Positions 44,095 to 51,237 of a stretch of DNA of 64,000 nt are shown here, piece after piece (position 1 is the stretch's first letter; every line of letters begins with the position of its first letter). Source of the stretch: an uncultured Chloroflexia bacterium (lineage in GTDB: Bacteria; Chloroflexota; Limnocylindria; Limnocylindrales; CSP1-4). Location: positions 717,682-781,681 of the forward strand of contig CAVYIM010000003.1 in assembly GCA_963768655.1 (NCBI GenBank), written 5' to 3'. Made by a program: the position numbers and the translations under genes. The notes under the pieces were generated by a model. It did no database searches and was not told the DNA's origin. It saw only the letters and a program-made list of their open reading frames with translations.

Positions 44095-45360
44095 CTACGG
44101 CTGGAAGATCTCGGCGGAGGCAACTGCCCAGGGGTCCTCGTTGGGGCCACCTCCGGCGATCAGGATCCGGCCATCGGCCAGAGTGGTGGCAGTGTGGCCC
44201 TGGCGGGCTGTGAACATTGGGCCAATGGCCGCAAAGGTTCCCGTGGCCGGGCTGAACAGCTCGGCCGAGCTGAGCGCCGCAGATGCGTCCATTCCACCCG
44301 CAACGAGGACCAGGCCGGTGGCCAGGAGGTTGGCCGTGTGGCCGATGCGGGCGCTCGTCATCGCACCTGTGGGGCTGAAAGTACCAGTGCGTGGGTCGTA
44401 CAACTCCGCGCTGGAGAATGGATTACCAAAATCCGAGCCGCCGGCAATCAGAACGCGGCCGTCGGCGAGCAGAGTTGCCGTATGGGCGTAGCGACCCCTG
44501 CTCATCGAGCCGGTCGGAGAGAACCTGCCAGTTCGAGGGTCGTACAACTCGGCAGTAGACGTGACCGACAGCCCGCCCTCGTCGCCTCCAGCAATCAGGA
44601 CGCGGCTGTCGGCCAGAAGAGTGGCGGTTTGACCCTCGCGCGCCAGATTCATTGATCCCGTGCGGGTGAACCTGCCGCTCGTCGGGTCATAGATCTCGGC
44701 GGAGGCGACTGGAACCCCGCCATTCTGGCCACCCGTTATGAGGACGCGGCCGTCTGCAAGCAGAGTGGCCGTTTGGTTGTCTCGAGACTCGTGCATAGAT
44801 CCGGTCCTGGTGAACCTGCCGGTCTGGGGGTCATACAGTTCAGCCGTGGCGATCTCCGCCAGACCCGTGCAGACGCCGCAGCTCCCAGAGTAGGTCGCGA
44901 AGCCAACTCCGCCTGTGACGAGCACGCGACCGTCGAGGAGCAGGGTCGCTGTGTGGTTCTCGCGAGCGTCGTGGAGCGAACCGGTCGAGGTGAAGGTGCC
45001 TGTCTTTGGGTCGTACAGCTCGGCGGAGGCGAGGGGCTGCGGGTAACTGTCACCTCCTGCGCCGCCGCCGACTATGAGCACGCGGCCGTCGGACAGCAGT
45101 GTGGCGGTTTGCTCGACCCTGGCCGTCGTCATCGAGCCTGTCGCCGTGAATGTGGGTGGCGGAGTCTGTATGGCGCTCGGAGAGGGCGTCAGGGTCGGGG
45201 CGGGCGTCGGACTCGAACTCGGACGCGGCGATTGAATAGGAGTGGCGCTCTGTGTCGGCGATCCAGTGGCTGAGCCTGCTGAACAGCCGGCCATCAGGAG
45301 GATCAGTAGCACGGCTAGCCCCGAACCGACACGTGGCCTACCCTGCACCACCGAGGTCAT
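44095..45360 (-). CDS. seven-bladed Kelch-repeat beta-propeller lipoprotein
   Basis: Lipobox 'LLILLMAGCSAG' and a Pro/Ser/Thr linker. Then seven units of 'TGSM..AR..HTATLL.DGRVLI.GG....(A/S)SAELYDP.TG.F'. Confidence 0.8.
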   Translation of the reverse strand: MTSVVQGRPRVGSGLAVLLILLMAGCSAGSATGSPTQSATPIQSPRPSSSPTPAPTLTPSPSAIQTPPPTFTATGSMTTARVEQTATLLSDGRVLIVGGGAGGDSYPQPLASAELYDPKTGTFTSTGSLHDARENHTATLLLDGRVLVTGGVGFATYSGSCGVCTGLAEIATAELYDPQTGRFTRTGSMHESRDNQTATLLADGRVLITGGQNGGVPVASAEIYDPTSGRFTRTGSMNLAREGQTATLLADSRVLIAGGDEGGLSVTSTAELYDPRTGRFSPTGSMSRGRYAHTATLLADGRVLIAGGSDFGNPFSSAELYDPRTGTFSPTGAMTSARIGHTANLLATGLVLVAGGMDASAALSSAELFSPATGTFAAIGPMFTARQGHTATTLADGRILIAGGGPNEDPWAVASAEIFQP

Positions 45361-45556
45361 CCGCGACTCCCCGTCAGATGCGACGGCGCCAAGCGTCGCC
45401 CTGGCGCTCAGTATGGCCCTTGCTCGCAATGCGACTGTGGCGCCAAACGTACGGAGATCGCGGCCGACCGGCTGGCAGTATCGGCGGTGGCGGGGGCGTC
45501 ACTCCCCTGCGCTACTCCCCGTGCGGGGCGGGCCCGCGGCGTCGATACTGCTCGCC

Positions 45557-46342
45557 ATGATCCGACGCGTGACCGCCACCCGCTACGTGACGCCGCTGCG
45601 CGAGGGTGGCTCTCTGCCCGCGATCGTCGAGGCCGACGACGACGGCCTGTACGTGGCCAAGTTCCGTGGCGCCGGCCATGGTGAGAAGGCGCTCGTCGCG
45701 GAGCTGGTCGCGGGCGAGATCGGACGCGCCTTGGGCCTGCTCGTGCCGGAGATCGTGCTCGTGGACTTTGACGCCCGCCTGGCGGCCGCCGAGCCCGACG
45801 CGGAGATCCGGGAACTGCTCCAGCGGAGCAGCGGCCTCAACGTAGGGTTGGACTTCCTCCCGGGCGCGCTGGGGTTCGATCCGGCCGCCGGCTTCCGGCC
45901 CCCGCCCGACCTTTCCGCAGACGTCGTCTGGTTCGACGCTTTCGTAACCAACGTCGACCGCGACGCCCGGAACACGAACATGCTCGTGTGGCACAAGCGG
46001 CTGTGGTTGATCGACCATGGCTCGGCGCTGTACATCCACCACAGCTGGCGCGATCCGGCCGGCCACGCCCGCCGGCCGATGGCCGAGATCGCGAGGAACG
46101 TGCTCCTGCCGTATTCGAGCTCGATCCTCGAGGCAGACGAACGGCTGGCGTCGAAGCTCACGCCCGAGCTTCTGGCCGAGATAGTCGCGGCGGTGCCCGA
46201 CGACTGGCTGCCGCCCGATCCCGCCAGGCCCGAGCTGGCCACCGCGGCGGCACATCGGGCCGCGTACCGAGACTATCTGGAGCGTCGGATCGCCGCGCCG
46301 CGGGCGTTCGCGCAGGAGGCGGAACGTGCCCGCGTCGCGTAG
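45557..46342 (+). CDS. HipA-like / PI3-4-kinase-fold protein kinase family protein (uncharacterised)
   Basis: 'VTPLREGGSLPAIVEADDDGLYVAKFRGAGHGEKALVAELVAGEIGRALGL' and 'FDAFVTNVDRDARNTNMLVWHKRLWLIDHGSAL' (catalytic-loop D..N and DHG/DFG-like). The family is recalled from memory, not searched. Confidence 0.65.
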   Translation: MIRRVTATRYVTPLREGGSLPAIVEADDDGLYVAKFRGAGHGEKALVAELVAGEIGRALGLLVPEIVLVDFDARLAAAEPDAEIRELLQRSSGLNVGLDFLPGALGFDPAAGFRPPPDLSADVVWFDAFVTNVDRDARNTNMLVWHKRLWLIDHGSALYIHHSWRDPAGHARRPMAEIARNVLLPYSSSILEADERLASKLTPELLAEIVAAVPDDWLPPDPARPELATAAAHRAAYRDYLERRIAAPRAFAQEAERARVA

Positions 46343-46727
46343 TCCCTTCGCGTACACCGTGCTTCGGGCCGTGCCGCACGTGGACCGGGGCGAGTTCATC
46401 AACGTCGGCGTCGTCCTGTTCTGTCGAGAGAAGAGGTTCCTGGGGGCGCGGATCGGGCTGGATCAGGCGCGCCTCGCGGCGCTCGAGCCCGACTGCGACG
46501 CGGCCGCGATCCGGACCCAGCTCGAAGCCGTCGTTCGAGTGGCCGAAGGCGACGCGGACGCCGGCCCGATCGCCCGCCTCTCCCAGTCCCAGCGATTCCA
46601 CTGGATCTCCTCACCGCACAGTACGGTCGTCCAGCGTTCGGAAGCCCACACGGGCTTGACCGACGATCCGGCGGCCACGCTCGAACACCTCTTCCGGACC
46701 CTGGTCGCTGCACCGGGATCGACCTGA
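46326..46727 (+). CDS. DUF3037-like protein
   Basis: 'FAYTVLRAVPHVDRGEFINVGVVLFC' matches the DUF3037 N-terminal signature as I remember it. The GTG start overlaps the kinase gene by 17 nt. Confidence 0.65.
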   Translation: MPASRSPFAYTVLRAVPHVDRGEFINVGVVLFCREKRFLGARIGLDQARLAALEPDCDAAAIRTQLEAVVRVAEGDADAGPIARLSQSQRFHWISSPHSTVVQRSEAHTGLTDDPAATLEHLFRTLVAAPGST

Positions 46728-47077: not shown

Positions 47078-47929
47078 TTGGTTTTCCCCGAGATCGAAAA
47101 GGGCACCGGCGGCAACGCCGTTCGGATCAAGCGTCAGCTGTCTGAATTGGCGATAGCTCATGCCTCGGACGGGCACTGGGCGGAGGCCGCGGACACCAAC
47201 CGCAAGATCCTGGAGATGGGACCCGACGCCGAGGCCGAGAACCGCCTGGCCAAATCCCTGTGGGAGCTGGGCGAGCTGGGCGAAGCGCGCGAGCACTACC
47301 AGATCGCACTCGCCCTGGATCCGACGAATCGCATCGCCGAGCGCAACATCGAGCGCCTGAGGGTGCTGATGAGCGAGGCCGGCGACAAGACCGTGGCCGC
47401 GGAGAAGGCCGGCAAGGCGCCCGTCGCCATCTTCGTCGAAGAGACCGGCAAGACCGGCTTCGCGATGCTCACGGACCTGGCCGCGCCCCGAACCCTCGCC
47501 CACGTCAACCCGGGCGACGCGGTCGAGTTGCTTCCCGAAGGCAATCGGCTCTTCGCCGTGGCCAACGGAACTCGCATCGGGATCGTCGAGCCACGCGTCG
47601 CGGCCCGGCTGCTCAAGCTGGTAGCCGACGGCAACAAGTACTCGGCCGGGATCACCTCGCTGGGCGACCGCGATGTCCGCATCGTGATCCGCGAGATCTT
47701 CCAGGACCCCCGCAACTACGGCAAGGTCAGCTTCCCCACCGCCGCCCGATCGTCGGACCTGCGCCCCTACACGAAGGGCACGCTCCTGCGCGAGGAGGAG
47801 CTGATGGAGGAGGAGCTCGAGGACGACGAGGAAGACGAGGAGATCGAGGACCTCGACCGCGTCCTTCCGGCCGAAGTCACCGGCGACGAGGCCTTCGAAG
47901 AGGAGCCCGACGAGCTCGAGGAGCCATAG
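47078..47929 (+). CDS. TPR protein with a HIRAN-like beta domain and a poly-acidic C-terminal tail
   Basis: TPR-like helices 'GHWAEAADTNRKILEMGPDAEAENRLAKSLWELGELGEAREHYQIALALDPTN'. Then 'VNPGDAVELLPEGNRLFAVANGTRIGIVEPRVAARLLKLVADGNKYSAGITSLGDRDVRIVIRE'. Tail 'EEELMEEELEDDEEDEEIEDLD'. The start is uncertain: TTG 47078 follows GAAAGGA, and the ORF opens at ATG 46931. Confidence 0.6.
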   Translation: MVFPEIEKGTGGNAVRIKRQLSELAIAHASDGHWAEAADTNRKILEMGPDAEAENRLAKSLWELGELGEAREHYQIALALDPTNRIAERNIERLRVLMSEAGDKTVAAEKAGKAPVAIFVEETGKTGFAMLTDLAAPRTLAHVNPGDAVELLPEGNRLFAVANGTRIGIVEPRVAARLLKLVADGNKYSAGITSLGDRDVRIVIREIFQDPRNYGKVSFPTAARSSDLRPYTKGTLLREEELMEEELEDDEEDEEIEDLDRVLPAEVTGDEAFEEEPDELEEP

Positions 47930-48189
47930 GCCGGACTTCGCCCCGTAGAAGGTGCGGGTCGGCCGTAGCACCGACCGCCGAAAGGGCGTCGGCCCGCGTT
48001 GGATCGACCGCCCGCGATTGTCGTGGCCGCCAACGCGCGCTCGCGTCTCGCGCGTCGCTGATGATCGCGCGCTCGCGTCTCACGCGCTCGCGTCGCGCGC
48101 GCTCGCCGGGCGGGCCGCTCGACATCCATCGACGCCATGACTTCGCGCGCGGCCGATCCGGCCCGGCACGCGTCTGTCACAATTGGCGC

Positions 48190-51100
48190 ATGGTCGGGCG
48201 CGCCGTCACCAACCGCGCCGAACGGCGCAGCGAAGGCAGCTCTTTGCTGCCCATCTTCGATCGACTCGCTCCGCCGGCTCCGATCGCGGACATCACCGCC
48301 CAGATCGAGGCGTGGACCAAGCCGGGCGAGGTCGTCCTCGACCTGAGCGGCCGTGGCGGCTGGGTCGCTCGGGCTGCGATAGCCGGCCAGCGTCGTGCCG
48401 CGGACCTCGAATCCCTGTCGCTGACGCGCCTCCTGGCCGATGTGGTGGTGCGCTCGCCCGACGTCCGCCATCTCGAAGCTGCGGCCCAGGCCATCTCGAT
48501 CAGGCCGCTCCTGGACGCCACGGTCAAGAAGACCATCGAGCAACTCTTCGCCAGCACGTGCCCGGTCTGCGGACGATCCGTCGTCCTCGAGTCCCTCGTT
48601 TGGGGGCCCGGCGATGGGCGCGGCGGGACCGGCGCCGGGCGCGGCACCGCAAAGTCGGGCGGCGCGGCGAAGCCGGGCACGACGGCGTCGGTCGCGGCCA
48701 GGCCGGGCGGCGCGGCCGCTGCGGGCAAAGCCCGGGAACGTGCCACCCGGCGTGAGTTCCGGTGCGCAACCTGCCAGCAGCCAGACGGCGGGGAGTTGCG
48801 TCACGCCGAACCCACTCCGGACGACCTGACTCGCGCGGCCTTTGTGGACCTTCCGGATACGGTGCGCGAAAGCCTGCGCAAACGGTTCCCGGCGCCGCCC
48901 GGGCCGCCGGACGTTGGTCTCCCCGACCAGCTCGTGGACCTGCATACGGCGCGGCAGCTGCTCGGCCTCAACGCGATCCTCGAGGGCATCGAGCTCGAGA
49001 CGCGTTCGGCACCGATGACGGCCGCCCTGCGGCTGGCATTCCTTCACGCCGTGGCGTCCGCCAGCAGGCTCAACTCGTACCGTGGCCGCCCCCAGGCGCT
49101 TCGAATCTCGAGGGGCGCGGTCCGCCTGCCGGCGGCTCACGCCTGGCGCGAGAGGAACCCGTGGCTCGCGTTCGAGGAAGGGCTGGCGATGGTGCGAAGC
49201 TTCGTCGTGCGCCTGGAATCGGACGAGAAACGGTCGGTGGCGGCCCGCCTCGCCTCGGATCTGATGGAGCTCCAGGAGGGGACTTCCAACGTGGTGCTGG
49301 GCGAGGCGACGCCGGGATCGCTGAGGCGGATCGGTCTTGCGGGCGAGCGCATCGCGCACTCCGGCACGCCCTCGCGGGTCCGGCTCGTCGTCGGCCAGGT
49401 CCCGCTGCGACTGACCCACGGCCGGCTCGCGGAGGCATACCACGAGACGGCCTGGGCCCTGGGGGCCGGCGCGGCCTCGCTGCTGCCCTTCGAGGAGCTG
49501 TTCCGGCCGGTGCCGCGCGCCGGCCGCCGGAGCGCGGCCGAGGATCTGGCCCGCTCGCTGGGGCGGTCGCTCGCAATCGCCACTCCGGCGCTCGCCCAGA
49601 ACGGCCGCGCCGTGGTGCTCCTCGACGATGCCGAGCCGCGAACATTGGTCGCGGCGGCAATCGGCGGAGCGGCGGCTGGATGCCGCCTGATCGACGCTCG
49701 CCTGCACCGCAGCGACGAAGACAGCCCGGCCGTGGCCGTCTTCGTGCCGTCAACCGGAGTCGTCGCGCCGGGGCCTCGCACCCGTGCCAATCGGCCACTC
49801 CCGCCGCTCGAAGGAGGCGCGGGCGATCCGGGCACGGTCACCGGGCCAGGCGTCTTCGCCGCTCCGGAGAAGCTCGGCGAGGGGCCGTTTCGCCATCCGG
49901 CTGCGGCGCAGGCCGTCAACGACACAGCCATCGAGCTGCTCAAGGCCCGGGGCGAGCCGGCCTGCTTCGAACACATGCTGGGCGATCTGCTGGTTGGGCT
50001 GGATCGCTCGGGGCAGCTGGCCCGCTTCGCCCGCCAGTTCCGGCCGCCCCGCGCCGACCAGGGCTGGGACGCGTGGGTCGACATCGATGGCGATCCGTCG
50101 GCGGCCCCCGGCGCGTCGGCCGCCCCAGGCGCGTCGGCCGCTCCCGGCGCGTCGGCCGCCCCAGGCGCGTCGGCCGCTCCCGGCGCGTCGGCCGCCCCAG
50201 GCGCGTCGGCCGCTCCCGGCGCGTCGGCCACAACCGGGTCGGCCGCCGGGCAGCCGCCGGCCGGCGCGGCATCAGCCGTTCCCGGCAGGTCGGCCGCCTC
50301 GAAGGAACCCGCCGGTGACGAGACGGCCGAGGACGAGGAGCCCTCCGAGCCGGCGGGCCCCGTCGACGAGCTCTTGGCGCTAATCCGAAACGAGCTCGAC
50401 CGCGGCACGAACCGCCGCGTTCGCCAGATCGAGCCCGGTCAGTACTGGCTCGGTTCGGAGGAGGACCGCTCCGGGGCCGCTCAACCCCTGGCGGATCGGA
50501 CGGAGTGGGCCGTCTTCAGCCTCCTCTCGTCATCGCGCCAGATGTCGGAGGCGGCCGTCTTCGAGCGGACGATGGGCCTCTTCCAGGATCGCGACGTTCC
50601 GGATGGCGAGCTGATGCGAGCCTGCCTGATGAGCTACAGCGCGCCGGGCAGCACGCCTGAGGCGGTCGCGACCGCCGATCAGCTGGAGCGACGCTCGGCC
50701 GAGCACGACGCCATGATCGCTGCCATAGCGGATCTGGGCCATCGCCTCGGGACGCGCGTCTGGATCGGGCGCCGCCAGCAGGCCCGCCGCTTCGACGGCC
50801 GCCCGCTGGCCGATCGGCTCGACATGGAGGAGCGCGACATCGTGCCGACCGTGATCGCCTGGGGTCCGGAGGCCGAGCTCGAGCGCGTCGACTGCGCCTG
50901 GTACGTCCGCCACAAGGCGACCTTCTTGTTCGAGGTCGAATGGACGGCAATGCTCGGCGATCCGGTCCTGGTGCGCCACAGTCGCTTCCCGAGCGACGAC
51001 AAGGTCGTTCGCTTCCTCGTCATCCCGCCCGAGCGCGCGGAGCTGGTGCGCTACAAGCTCGCCCGTTCGCCGTTGCTCCGCCGGGCCTTCGCGGATCGGA

Positions 51101-51237
51101 ACTGGCACGTCCTCAAGTGGGACCAGCTGGCCGCCTTCGCGGCCCGTACGGAGGTGTCCCTGGCCGACCTCGAGCCCTACCTGGGACTCGACGCCGACGC
51201 GGCCGGCGGCGAGCAGCTGCCGTTGTTCGAGGGTTGA
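48190..51237 (+). CDS. 1015-aa multidomain protein: class-I methyltransferase-like fold with a Zn-ribbon insertion, long helical middle, repeat linker, PD-(D/E)xK-like C-terminal domain
   Basis: The ATG at 48190 is in frame with ORF 47260..51237. Motif-I-like 'GEVVLDLSGRGGWVARAAIAGQRRAADLE'. Cys pairs 'CPVCGRS' and 'CATCQQ'. No DPPY/NPPY motif seen. C-terminus 'VWIGRRQQ...ERVDCAWYVRHKATFLFEVEWTAMLGDPVLVRHSR...VVRFLVIPPERAELVRYKL'. Confidence 0.7.
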   Translation: MVGRAVTNRAERRSEGSSLLPIFDRLAPPAPIADITAQIEAWTKPGEVVLDLSGRGGWVARAAIAGQRRAADLESLSLTRLLADVVVRSPDVRHLEAAAQAISIRPLLDATVKKTIEQLFASTCPVCGRSVVLESLVWGPGDGRGGTGAGRGTAKSGGAAKPGTTASVAARPGGAAAAGKARERATRREFRCATCQQPDGGELRHAEPTPDDLTRAAFVDLPDTVRESLRKRFPAPPGPPDVGLPDQLVDLHTARQLLGLNAILEGIELETRSAPMTAALRLAFLHAVASASRLNSYRGRPQALRISRGAVRLPAAHAWRERNPWLAFEEGLAMVRSFVVRLESDEKRSVAARLASDLMELQEGTSNVVLGEATPGSLRRIGLAGERIAHSGTPSRVRLVVGQVPLRLTHGRLAEAYHETAWALGAGAASLLPFEELFRPVPRAGRRSAAEDLARSLGRSLAIATPALAQNGRAVVLLDDAEPRTLVAAAIGGAAAGCRLIDARLHRSDEDSPAVAVFVPSTGVVAPGPRTRANRPLPPLEGGAGDPGTVTGPGVFAAPEKLGEGPFRHPAAAQAVNDTAIELLKARGEPACFEHMLGDLLVGLDRSGQLARFARQFRPPRADQGWDAWVDIDGDPSAAPGASAAPGASAAPGASAAPGASAAPGASAAPGASAAPGASATTGSAAGQPPAGAASAVPGRSAASKEPAGDETAEDEEPSEPAGPVDELLALIRNELDRGTNRRVRQIEPGQYWLGSEEDRSGAAQPLADRTEWAVFSLLSSSRQMSEAAVFERTMGLFQDRDVPDGELMRACLMSYSAPGSTPEAVATADQLERRSAEHDAMIAAIADLGHRLGTRVWIGRRQQARRFDGRPLADRLDMEERDIVPTVIAWGPEAELERVDCAWYVRHKATFLFEVEWTAMLGDPVLVRHSRFPSDDKVVRFLVIPPERAELVRYKLARSPLLRRAFADRNWHVLKWDQLAAFAARTEVSLADLEPYLGLDADAAGGEQLPLFEG
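50104..50229 (+). repeat. seven tandem 18-bp in-frame units (APGASA)7; units 2-7 form a 36-bp unit repeated three times
   Basis: gcccccggcgcgtcggcc is followed by (gccccaggcgcgtcggcc gctcccggcgcgtcggcc) three times. The repeat lies inside the 1015-aa CDS linker. Confidence 0.95.

Follow-up and report, generated by a model that had tools for sequence, protein, structure and literature searches.

A methylase-derived core protein of Limnocylindria with a putative sliding-clamp-binding tail and a possible role in DNA repair or processing

The gene at positions 48190-51237 of the forward strand of the window (the 64,000-nt stretch of DNA analysed here, which spans positions 717,682-781,681 of the forward strand of contig CAVYIM010000003.1, assembly GCA_963768655.1) gives a stop-free translation of 1015 residues. 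We consider it rather probable, from its sequence and its predicted structure, that this protein (hereafter the target) is a domesticated relative of the DUF1156/COG1743-type DNA methylases that acts as a clamp-recruited factor in replication-coupled DNA repair or processing. According to this proposal, the QLPLF peptide in the C-terminal tail would attach the protein to DnaN clamps that remain on freshly replicated DNA or on repair intermediates. The module derived from the methylase would have given up methyl transfer and would instead serve in DNA-binding, possibly base-flipping, recognition, and the C-terminal domain would nick or cleave the DNA. The outcome would be replication-coupled repair or processing, possibly carried out jointly with the TPR/acidic-tail protein encoded upstream. 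A function in replication or repair is what clamp docking, a recognition module and a nuclease-like domain would jointly point to, and DNA at clamp-marked sites is the most likely place of action of the target.

The family to which the target belongs is real, conserved and uncharacterised. Of the candidates scored in a word-indexed search, 809 proteins reached E <= 0.001, with all the named matches annotated as 'hypothetical protein' in metagenome-assembled genomes (MAGs) of Candidatus Limnocylindrales/Limnocylindria (Chloroflexota), and an exhaustive phmmer search returned 829 cluster representatives, some of them full-length at 28-40% identity. Full-length relatives were also found in seven other Chloroflexota families (f5, f9, f14, f18, f21, f33 and f34). 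The target had no Pfam match even at E<=1 and none in NCBIfam, in agreement with the initial annotation, made from the sequence alone, which had recognised no named system in it. The PHROGs search gave low-complexity noise and nothing significant, and phmmer matches to the PDB were confined to the low-complexity linker. In an alignment of 27 sequences at 48-88% identity, G46, D51, R55, G56, G57, W58, R68, E74 and L399 were invariant in the methylase-like part, as were the ribbon cysteines C124, C127, C192 and C195, and D901, E915, E917, W918, K956 and Q1009 in the C-terminal part, while R396, V397, G402, Q403, P405 and L406 were near-invariant. The 1015-residue protein of the initial annotation is therefore a real one, with more than 800 homologs and invariant motif residues, and all the peptides quoted there are present in the translation (VVLDLSGRGGWVARAAIAGQRRAADLE, residues 48-74; CPVCGRS, 124-130; CATCQQ, 192-197; VWIGRRQQ, 857-864; VDCAWYVRHKATFLFEVEWTAMLGDPVLVRHSR, 900-932; RFLVIPPERAELVRYKL, 941-957).

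The methylase ancestry of the first half of the protein (residues ~20-520) was apparent in profile searches. A family profile built from 46 members and searched against the PDB matched M.RsrI (E 1.7e-6) and a TTHA0409-type Thermus methylase (E 1e-4), and also M.MboIIA, M.PvuII and CcrM, all of these matches being restricted to profile positions 20-76, which hold the motif X/I/II segment; further along, 'RVRLVlGQpPL' was aligned to RsrI 'VQLIICDPPY' below threshold. Distant homologs matched Pfam N6_N4_Mtase at model positions 160-215 only (helix X and motif I), two of them exceeding its gathering score with 30.0 and 33.6 bits, and the target itself lies below every Pfam threshold, N6_N4_Mtase (PF01555) included. 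In the target, motif I ('LDLSGRGGW', residues 50-58) lies on beta1 and E74, the motif II acid, ends beta2. Motif I departs from (D)PFxGxG, as D51-L-S-G-R55-G-G carries an Arg at the first conserved Gly, and the place of DPPY in motif IV is taken by 'RVRLVVGQVPL' (residues 396-406, nt 49375-49407). The regular expression [DNS]PP[YFWH] was absent from the target and from 23 other family members, in line with the initial annotation, in which no (D/N)PP(Y/F/W) motif had been found. That annotation had also described a degenerate methyltransferase-like module, which agrees with an M.RsrI match that covers motif X/I only and with GQVPL at motif IV. Judged by these motifs, the methylase-like core is catalytically degenerate and methyl transfer by it is very unlikely.

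A closer relationship was found by profile-profile comparison (hhalign) with the DUF1156 methylases, a likeness that the initial annotation had pointed out and that this comparison upheld. Against a classical DUF1156 set of ten proteins from other Chloroflexota genomes (L105-L114), the family scored 95.5% (E 1.5e-8) in an alignment that pairs 'DLHTPRQL' with 'DLFTPRQL', 'NPW' with 'NPF' and 'LVlGQpPl' with 'LVSTDPPYYDN'; the 'ERNPW' of the helical domain has 'EGNPF' as its counterpart. Against a set of four DUF1156-positive Zn-ribbon methylases of other Chloroflexota with intact 'LDPFMGGGTT' and DPPY motifs (L115-L117 and L120), the score rose to 97.9% (E 5.3e-13). The two alignment partners are collinear over residues 48-503, both CxxC pairs included, with 'VLDLSGRGGWV' paired with 'VLDPFMGGGTT', and the GQxPL motif paired with 'VITDPPY'. 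The Zn ribbon that had been proposed from two CxxC pairs thus has an equivalent in these enzymes, and its four cysteines are invariant. In the structural model it forms beta-hairpins at residues 121-140 and 183-206, separated by a disordered Gly/Ala-rich loop (145-179; pLDDT <50). By these alignments the core is a true homolog of Zn-ribbon DUF1156/COG1743-type N6/N4 DNA methylases, with which it has in common, over ~450 residues, the order helix X, motif I, motif II, Cys4 ribbon, 'TPRQL', 'NPW/NPF', motif IV strand and following strands. The differences are also clear. DPP[YF] is present in 10/10 classical DUF1156 proteins and in 6/6 Zn-ribbon-type or related relatives, whereas the target has GQxPL at motif IV and GRGG instead of GGG at motif I. 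The N-terminal DUF1156 domain (PF06634, 'HxWWARR'), which the intact relatives match, was absent from the target in Pfam at E<=1, and the target begins ~30 residues ahead of helix X. In addition, the target has an extra winged-helix domain, nuclease-like domain and clamp motif at its C-terminal side. The beta-class amino-methyltransferases (PF01555: M.RsrI, M.MboIIA, M.PvuII and CcrM) resemble the target in the motif X/I/II segment only, and their motif order (IV...X-I) differs from that of the target (X-I-II...IV), in which the catalytic DPPY is absent.

These data bear directly on the idea that the protein could have kept methyltransferase activity in spite of its unorthodox motifs and, held at the clamp, would methylate DNA soon after replication. 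A eukaryotic parallel exists in PCNA-bound maintenance methylation, and such an activity would be consistent with the invariance of D51 and E74, with a whole Rossmann core modelled at high confidence and with the conservation of the motif IV substitute (Q403, P405), unlike what random decay would leave. However, no family member has (D/N/S)PP(Y/F/W), the stacking aromatic has become Leu, an invariant Arg occupies the Gly position of the S-adenosylmethionine (SAM) loop, and the methylase models of Pfam and NCBIfam miss the target, so that we regard this possibility as extremely improbable.

The C-terminal half was analysed on AlphaFold2 (AF2) models. The full-length model, computed from a 46-sequence alignment, had a mean predicted local distance difference test score (pLDDT) of 83.9 and a predicted TM score of 0.83, with disorder at residues 1-16, 145-179, 635-718 and the last 11 residues (1005-1015; pLDDT <50). 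When it was compared with the PDB, Foldseek retrieved generic Rossmann methylases only (E >= 0.03), probably because long inserts break the full-length alignment. A model of residues 722-1015 reached a pLDDT of 89 and resolved two domains. The first is winged-helix-like and resembled the cullin WHB domain (Foldseek probability 0.9-0.98, target TM 0.6-0.7). The second likely has a restriction-endonuclease-like fold, as predicted by its modelled topology, which DSSP gives as alpha(832-852)-beta(856-859)-beta(902-906)-beta(910-916)-alpha(923-932)-beta(939-945), with D901 just ahead of the second strand and E915-V-E917 on the third. The initial annotation had read a D...ExE pattern of this kind from the letters, and both the model and the conservation of the residues agree with it, the fold matches being weak. 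D901, E915 and E917, which that annotation had proposed to check in a multiple alignment, are invariant in the 27 sequences and at least 90% conserved in 46 sequences reaching down to 23% identity; R835, H839, H851, W904, Y905, R941, E948, R949 and K956 are also conserved in this domain. The Foldseek matches of the domain were weak but recurrently came from the restriction-endonuclease-like superfamily. They included AF2093 (E 0.037), Card1, NucS/EndoMS, FokI and YaeQ in the PDB, and an MmcB-like repair protein (probability 0.94, E 0.036), a 'restriction endonuclease', VRR-NUC and endonuclease I in BFVD. Some homologs bear a weak precomputed Pfam label, PF27126 NmeDI_C, which is known from the homolog records; this label is named after a type II restriction enzyme, and the NmeDI paper contains no domain analysis.

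The protein terminates in ...GGEQLPLFEG, which places QLPLF two residues from the end, in a tail with pLDDT <50. The QLxLF pentapeptide is the established consensus for binding to the beta-clamp, and its usual place is the C-terminus (PMC4549789). Among close homologs, 117/121 carry Q[LM]x[LM]F in their final 12 residues, mostly as QLPLF and two residues from the end, and relatives at 28-35% identity end in QLQLF, QLSLF, QLRMF, QLTLF or QLSMF; with the endings QMMMF, QLMMF and QMRMF included, the range of identity extends down to 25%. Even in the remote clade formed by f9 and f33 (loci L085-L088; ~737-765 residues), the tails read QMMMF, QLMMF, QLALL and QMRMF. As a genome control, a terminal clamp consensus was searched for in 2395 open reading frames (ORFs) filtered by G+C content at the third codon position (GC3), a filter that the extended ORF of the target failed, and the sole hit was a 252-residue uracil-DNA glycosylase ending in ...TAQLGLF (C7:166978-167737, + strand; Pfam UDG, E 1.7e-33). 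From the sequence of the tail and its conservation, we infer that QLPLF would dock the protein on DnaN. The motif had been overlooked in the initial annotation.

The distribution of the gene was examined in a sample of 41 Limnocylindria genomes and its surroundings in 80 related loci. A profile of the C-terminal module found exactly one copy in 41/41 class genomes, the order PolX ... TPR protein - target - DUF885 was kept in about 70/80 loci, and even the reduced-genome family f2 retains TPR-target-DUF885. Furthermore, ortholog divergence tracks that of the neighbouring housekeeping genes. The target is a single-copy, syntenic and vertically inherited core gene of Limnocylindria, an abundant uncultured class of soil and freshwater. 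True DUF1156 methylases, in contrast, are patchy and often multi-copy (47/201 genomes, none of them the genome of the target), and the distribution of the target is that of a core gene and not of a defence gene. The initial annotation had proposed a stand-alone defence or repair factor. A stand-alone anti-phage enzyme, that is, a nuclease derived from restriction-modification or of type IV-like character directed against foreign DNA, would fit the descent from methylases of the DUF1156 type, typically accessory or defence-associated genes, and the presence of a restriction-endonuclease-like domain. The PADLOC search gave only one match, MTase_II at E 0.0086 over 45 residues of the target around motif I, which is weak and not significant, and PHROGs added none. 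In addition, no defence genes were found near the target, whose neighbours are housekeeping genes, and the survey of homologs for defence-island linkage, which that annotation had called for, showed a fixed synteny and no island-like variable context. Together with the single copy in every class genome, a divergence in step with the housekeeping neighbours, and a clamp-binding tail, a feature characteristic of proteins that act in replication and repair, these results make a defence function quite improbable; the repair half of the earlier proposal is favoured by the clamp motif and the defence half is unsupported.

Several observations weigh against a clamp-recruited repair or processing nuclease and have to be set beside the evidence in its favour. 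Clamp binding is predicted from a single short linear motif. All the fold matches of the nuclease-like domain are non-significant (E 0.017-0.7, the best being 0.017-0.04), and in the target a Glu stands where (D/E)xK has its canonical Lys, a substitution with a precedent in BamHI, which has D...ExE instead of D...ExK. The remote members in f9 and f33 no longer have residues equivalent to D901, E915 and E917 and have kept a clamp-type tail, so cleavage may not be the conserved core activity. Additionally, the invariance of D51 and E74, the equivalents of SAM-contacting residues, leaves room for SAM binding or an unusual catalysis, and a search for RNA-seq runs that could inform on expression and on co-transcription with the TPR gene found none. 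Part of this evidence would suit a non-nucleolytic, clamp-associated DNA-binding or scaffold protein, in which both modules would serve in binding only and which would read a mark or structure behind the fork or regulate clamp traffic. The scaffold and the clamp motif are the furthest-conserved features of the superfamily, persisting in f9 and f33 without the three acids; two members from outside the class read FVVQWTA and FQVEWTA, respectively, and the absent Lys points the same way. However, D901, E915, E917 and their flanks are invariant or nearly so in Limnocylindria and in sister lineages, as expected of a working active site, and we therefore judge the scaffold explanation unlikely and keep the clamp-recruited repair or processing factor as the preferred one. 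The f9/f33 clade (L085-L088), which has no TPR neighbour, was also considered as an ancestor with intact motifs and rejected, as it has no DPPY and its nuclease acids are lost.

The architecture combines known kinds of proteins, namely methylase-nuclease fusions and clamp-tethered nucleases. The type IIG/IIL enzymes and R.NmeDI, like the target, join an amino-methylase fold and a restriction-endonuclease-like domain in one polypeptide, but in the target the methylase motifs appear dead, the nuclease-like domain is C-terminal, past a long disordered linker, and there is a clamp motif together with core-gene inheritance. NucS/EndoMS, a clamp-binding mismatch endonuclease of Actinobacteria and Archaea, has on paper the same arrangement, in which a nuclease domain of the PD-(D/E)xK type precedes a clamp-binding peptide at the C-terminus. 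Its structures 2vld and 5gke aligned to the target domain over 67-68 columns without significance (Foldseek probability 0.16-0.21), the target is four times larger, and its recognition module, which derives from a methylase, is of an entirely different kind. If our interpretation is correct, a restriction-modification-type enzyme has been domesticated as a factor of chromosomal replication or repair in which a methylase fold is re-used as a reader and the sliding clamp delivers a nuclease. The family would then stand beside MutL and NucS/EndoMS among the few clamp-tethered nucleases, and it would be a candidate for maintaining replication fidelity in Limnocylindria without MutS/MutL or NucS.

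In this regard, the mismatch-repair background of the class is unusual. MutL_C and MutS domain I were each found in 0/41 class genomes, and MutL_C is present in 256/301 Chloroflexota genomes overall. NucS_C gave only short partial matches in the 41 class genomes and none in the family of the window, and no Pfam match to NucS_C (PF01939) was found anywhere in the genome of the target. Limnocylindria thus appear to be without all known mismatch-repair systems. The single MutS_V match of the genome is of the MutS2 type with an Smr C-terminus (C7:231442-234091, - strand), and in the assembly a frameshift interrupts its gene within the ATPase domain, which could reflect a pseudogene or a MAG error. 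The target family was considered as a replacement of MutL and rejected: the seven non-class lineages that have the family (f5, f9, f14, f18, f21, f33 and f34) all have MutL too, so the origin of the family does not lie in a replacement of MutL. With low probability, it may have acquired further duties once MutS and MutL had been lost. A more specific proposal would be that the target and the TPR/acidic-tail protein form the incision module of a third, as yet unrecognised post-replicative mismatch or lesion repair pathway, in which the pocket of the dead methylase would be used to examine bases flipped out of nascent DNA marked by the clamp. This is suggested by the fact that 41/41 genomes keep one clamp-tailed nuclease-like protein beside a TPR protein and near PolX, without MutS1, MutL or a convincing NucS, and we rate it as decidedly unlikely.

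The start of the gene was defined by base composition and conservation. The mechanical ORF is longer and begins at GTG 47260, but G+C contents at codon positions 1/2/3 are 0.85/0.74/0.50 in 47260-48189, against 0.76/0.57/0.86 within the gene, and because this pattern is wrong for the genome we regard 47260-48189 as non-coding in the frame of the target; the segment also overlaps the genuine TPR gene, which uses another frame. The N-terminus 'MVGRA.TN' is kept among homologs, with M1 invariant in the 27 sequences. The coordinates of the gene and of its features are given in Table 1.

Table 1. Positions in the window of the gene, its predicted domains and motifs, and the upstream TPR gene
Feature	Position	Strand	Basis
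Whole gene, 1015 aa, ATG start, TGA stop	48190..51237	+	Translation, GC3 0.86, >800 homologs, AF2
Methyltransferase-fold N-lobe, residues ~20-119: helix X, beta1, beta2	48247..48546	+	Profile, Pfam, hhalign
Inserted Cys4 zinc ribbon, C124/C127/C192/C195	48550..48807	+	Invariant Cys, AF2, hhalign
Helical domain, 'DLHTARQL' + 'ERNPW', residues ~210-345	48817..49224	+	hhalign pairing
Methyltransferase-fold C-lobe, residues ~366-520, including beta4 strand	49285..49749	+	Profile alignments
Extended loop 'PGPRTRANRPLPP..GGAGDPGT' + three-helix module	49747..50088	+	Near-invariant columns, pLDDT 78-97
Disordered Ala/Pro/Gly/Ser-rich, acidic linker, residues 635-718	50092..50343	+	pLDDT <50
Winged-helix-like domain, residues ~724-816	50359..50637	+	AF2 C-terminal model, Foldseek
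Putative restriction-endonuclease-like (PD-(D/E)xK-type) domain, residues ~832-1000	50683..51189	+	DSSP, Foldseek, conservation
Candidate active-site residues D901, E915, E917	50890-50892, 50932-50934, 50938-50940	+	Conservation
Putative beta-sliding-clamp-binding motif QLPLF, residues 1009-1013	51214..51228	+	Conservation, disordered tail
Upstream TPR protein, beta-rich middle domain, poly-acidic tail	47078..47929	+	Synteny, Pfam

Between the methylase-like core and the linker, the loop 'PGPRTRANRPLPP..GGAGDPGT' (residues 527-549, 49768-49836) lies just past the last methylase strand and is almost invariant family-wide, and it is followed by the three-helix module 'ELLKARGEP...GLDRSGQLARF' (residues 569-617). 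The linker includes (APGASA)n units encoded by a 36-bp tandem repeat (50096-50229; 3.7 copies, 97% matches in Tandem Repeats Finder). As this repeat block is missing from 26/26 aligned homologs, it is a recent, slippage-prone and lineage-specific expansion.

The TPR protein lies upstream of the target in 72/80 Limnocylindria loci, mostly directly adjacent, and with identities of 70-97% it exceeds the target (43-87%) in conservation. The tail of the TPR protein contains a conserved 'DLDRVLP..DEAFEEE' stretch, within which the block 'DLDR.LP....T..EAF' is invariant class-wide, and TPR was the only domain detected in Pfam (E<=10) and by a profile search of the PDB. Given the conserved linkage, the TPR protein would be a candidate physical partner of the target. 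No sigma-70-like promoter was detected around the gap between the two genes, which measures 260 nt and contains, at 48034-48106, a tandem repeat with a GC-rich 15-bp unit (CGCGCGCTCGCGTCT, 4.7 copies). Lastly, a HipA_2 kinase and DUF3037 gene pair (45242-46727) lies between PolX and the TPR gene in the window and in only 9/80 related loci (L003, L012, L013, L015, L016, L023, L026, L027 and L031), and is a variable insert in surroundings that are otherwise fixed.

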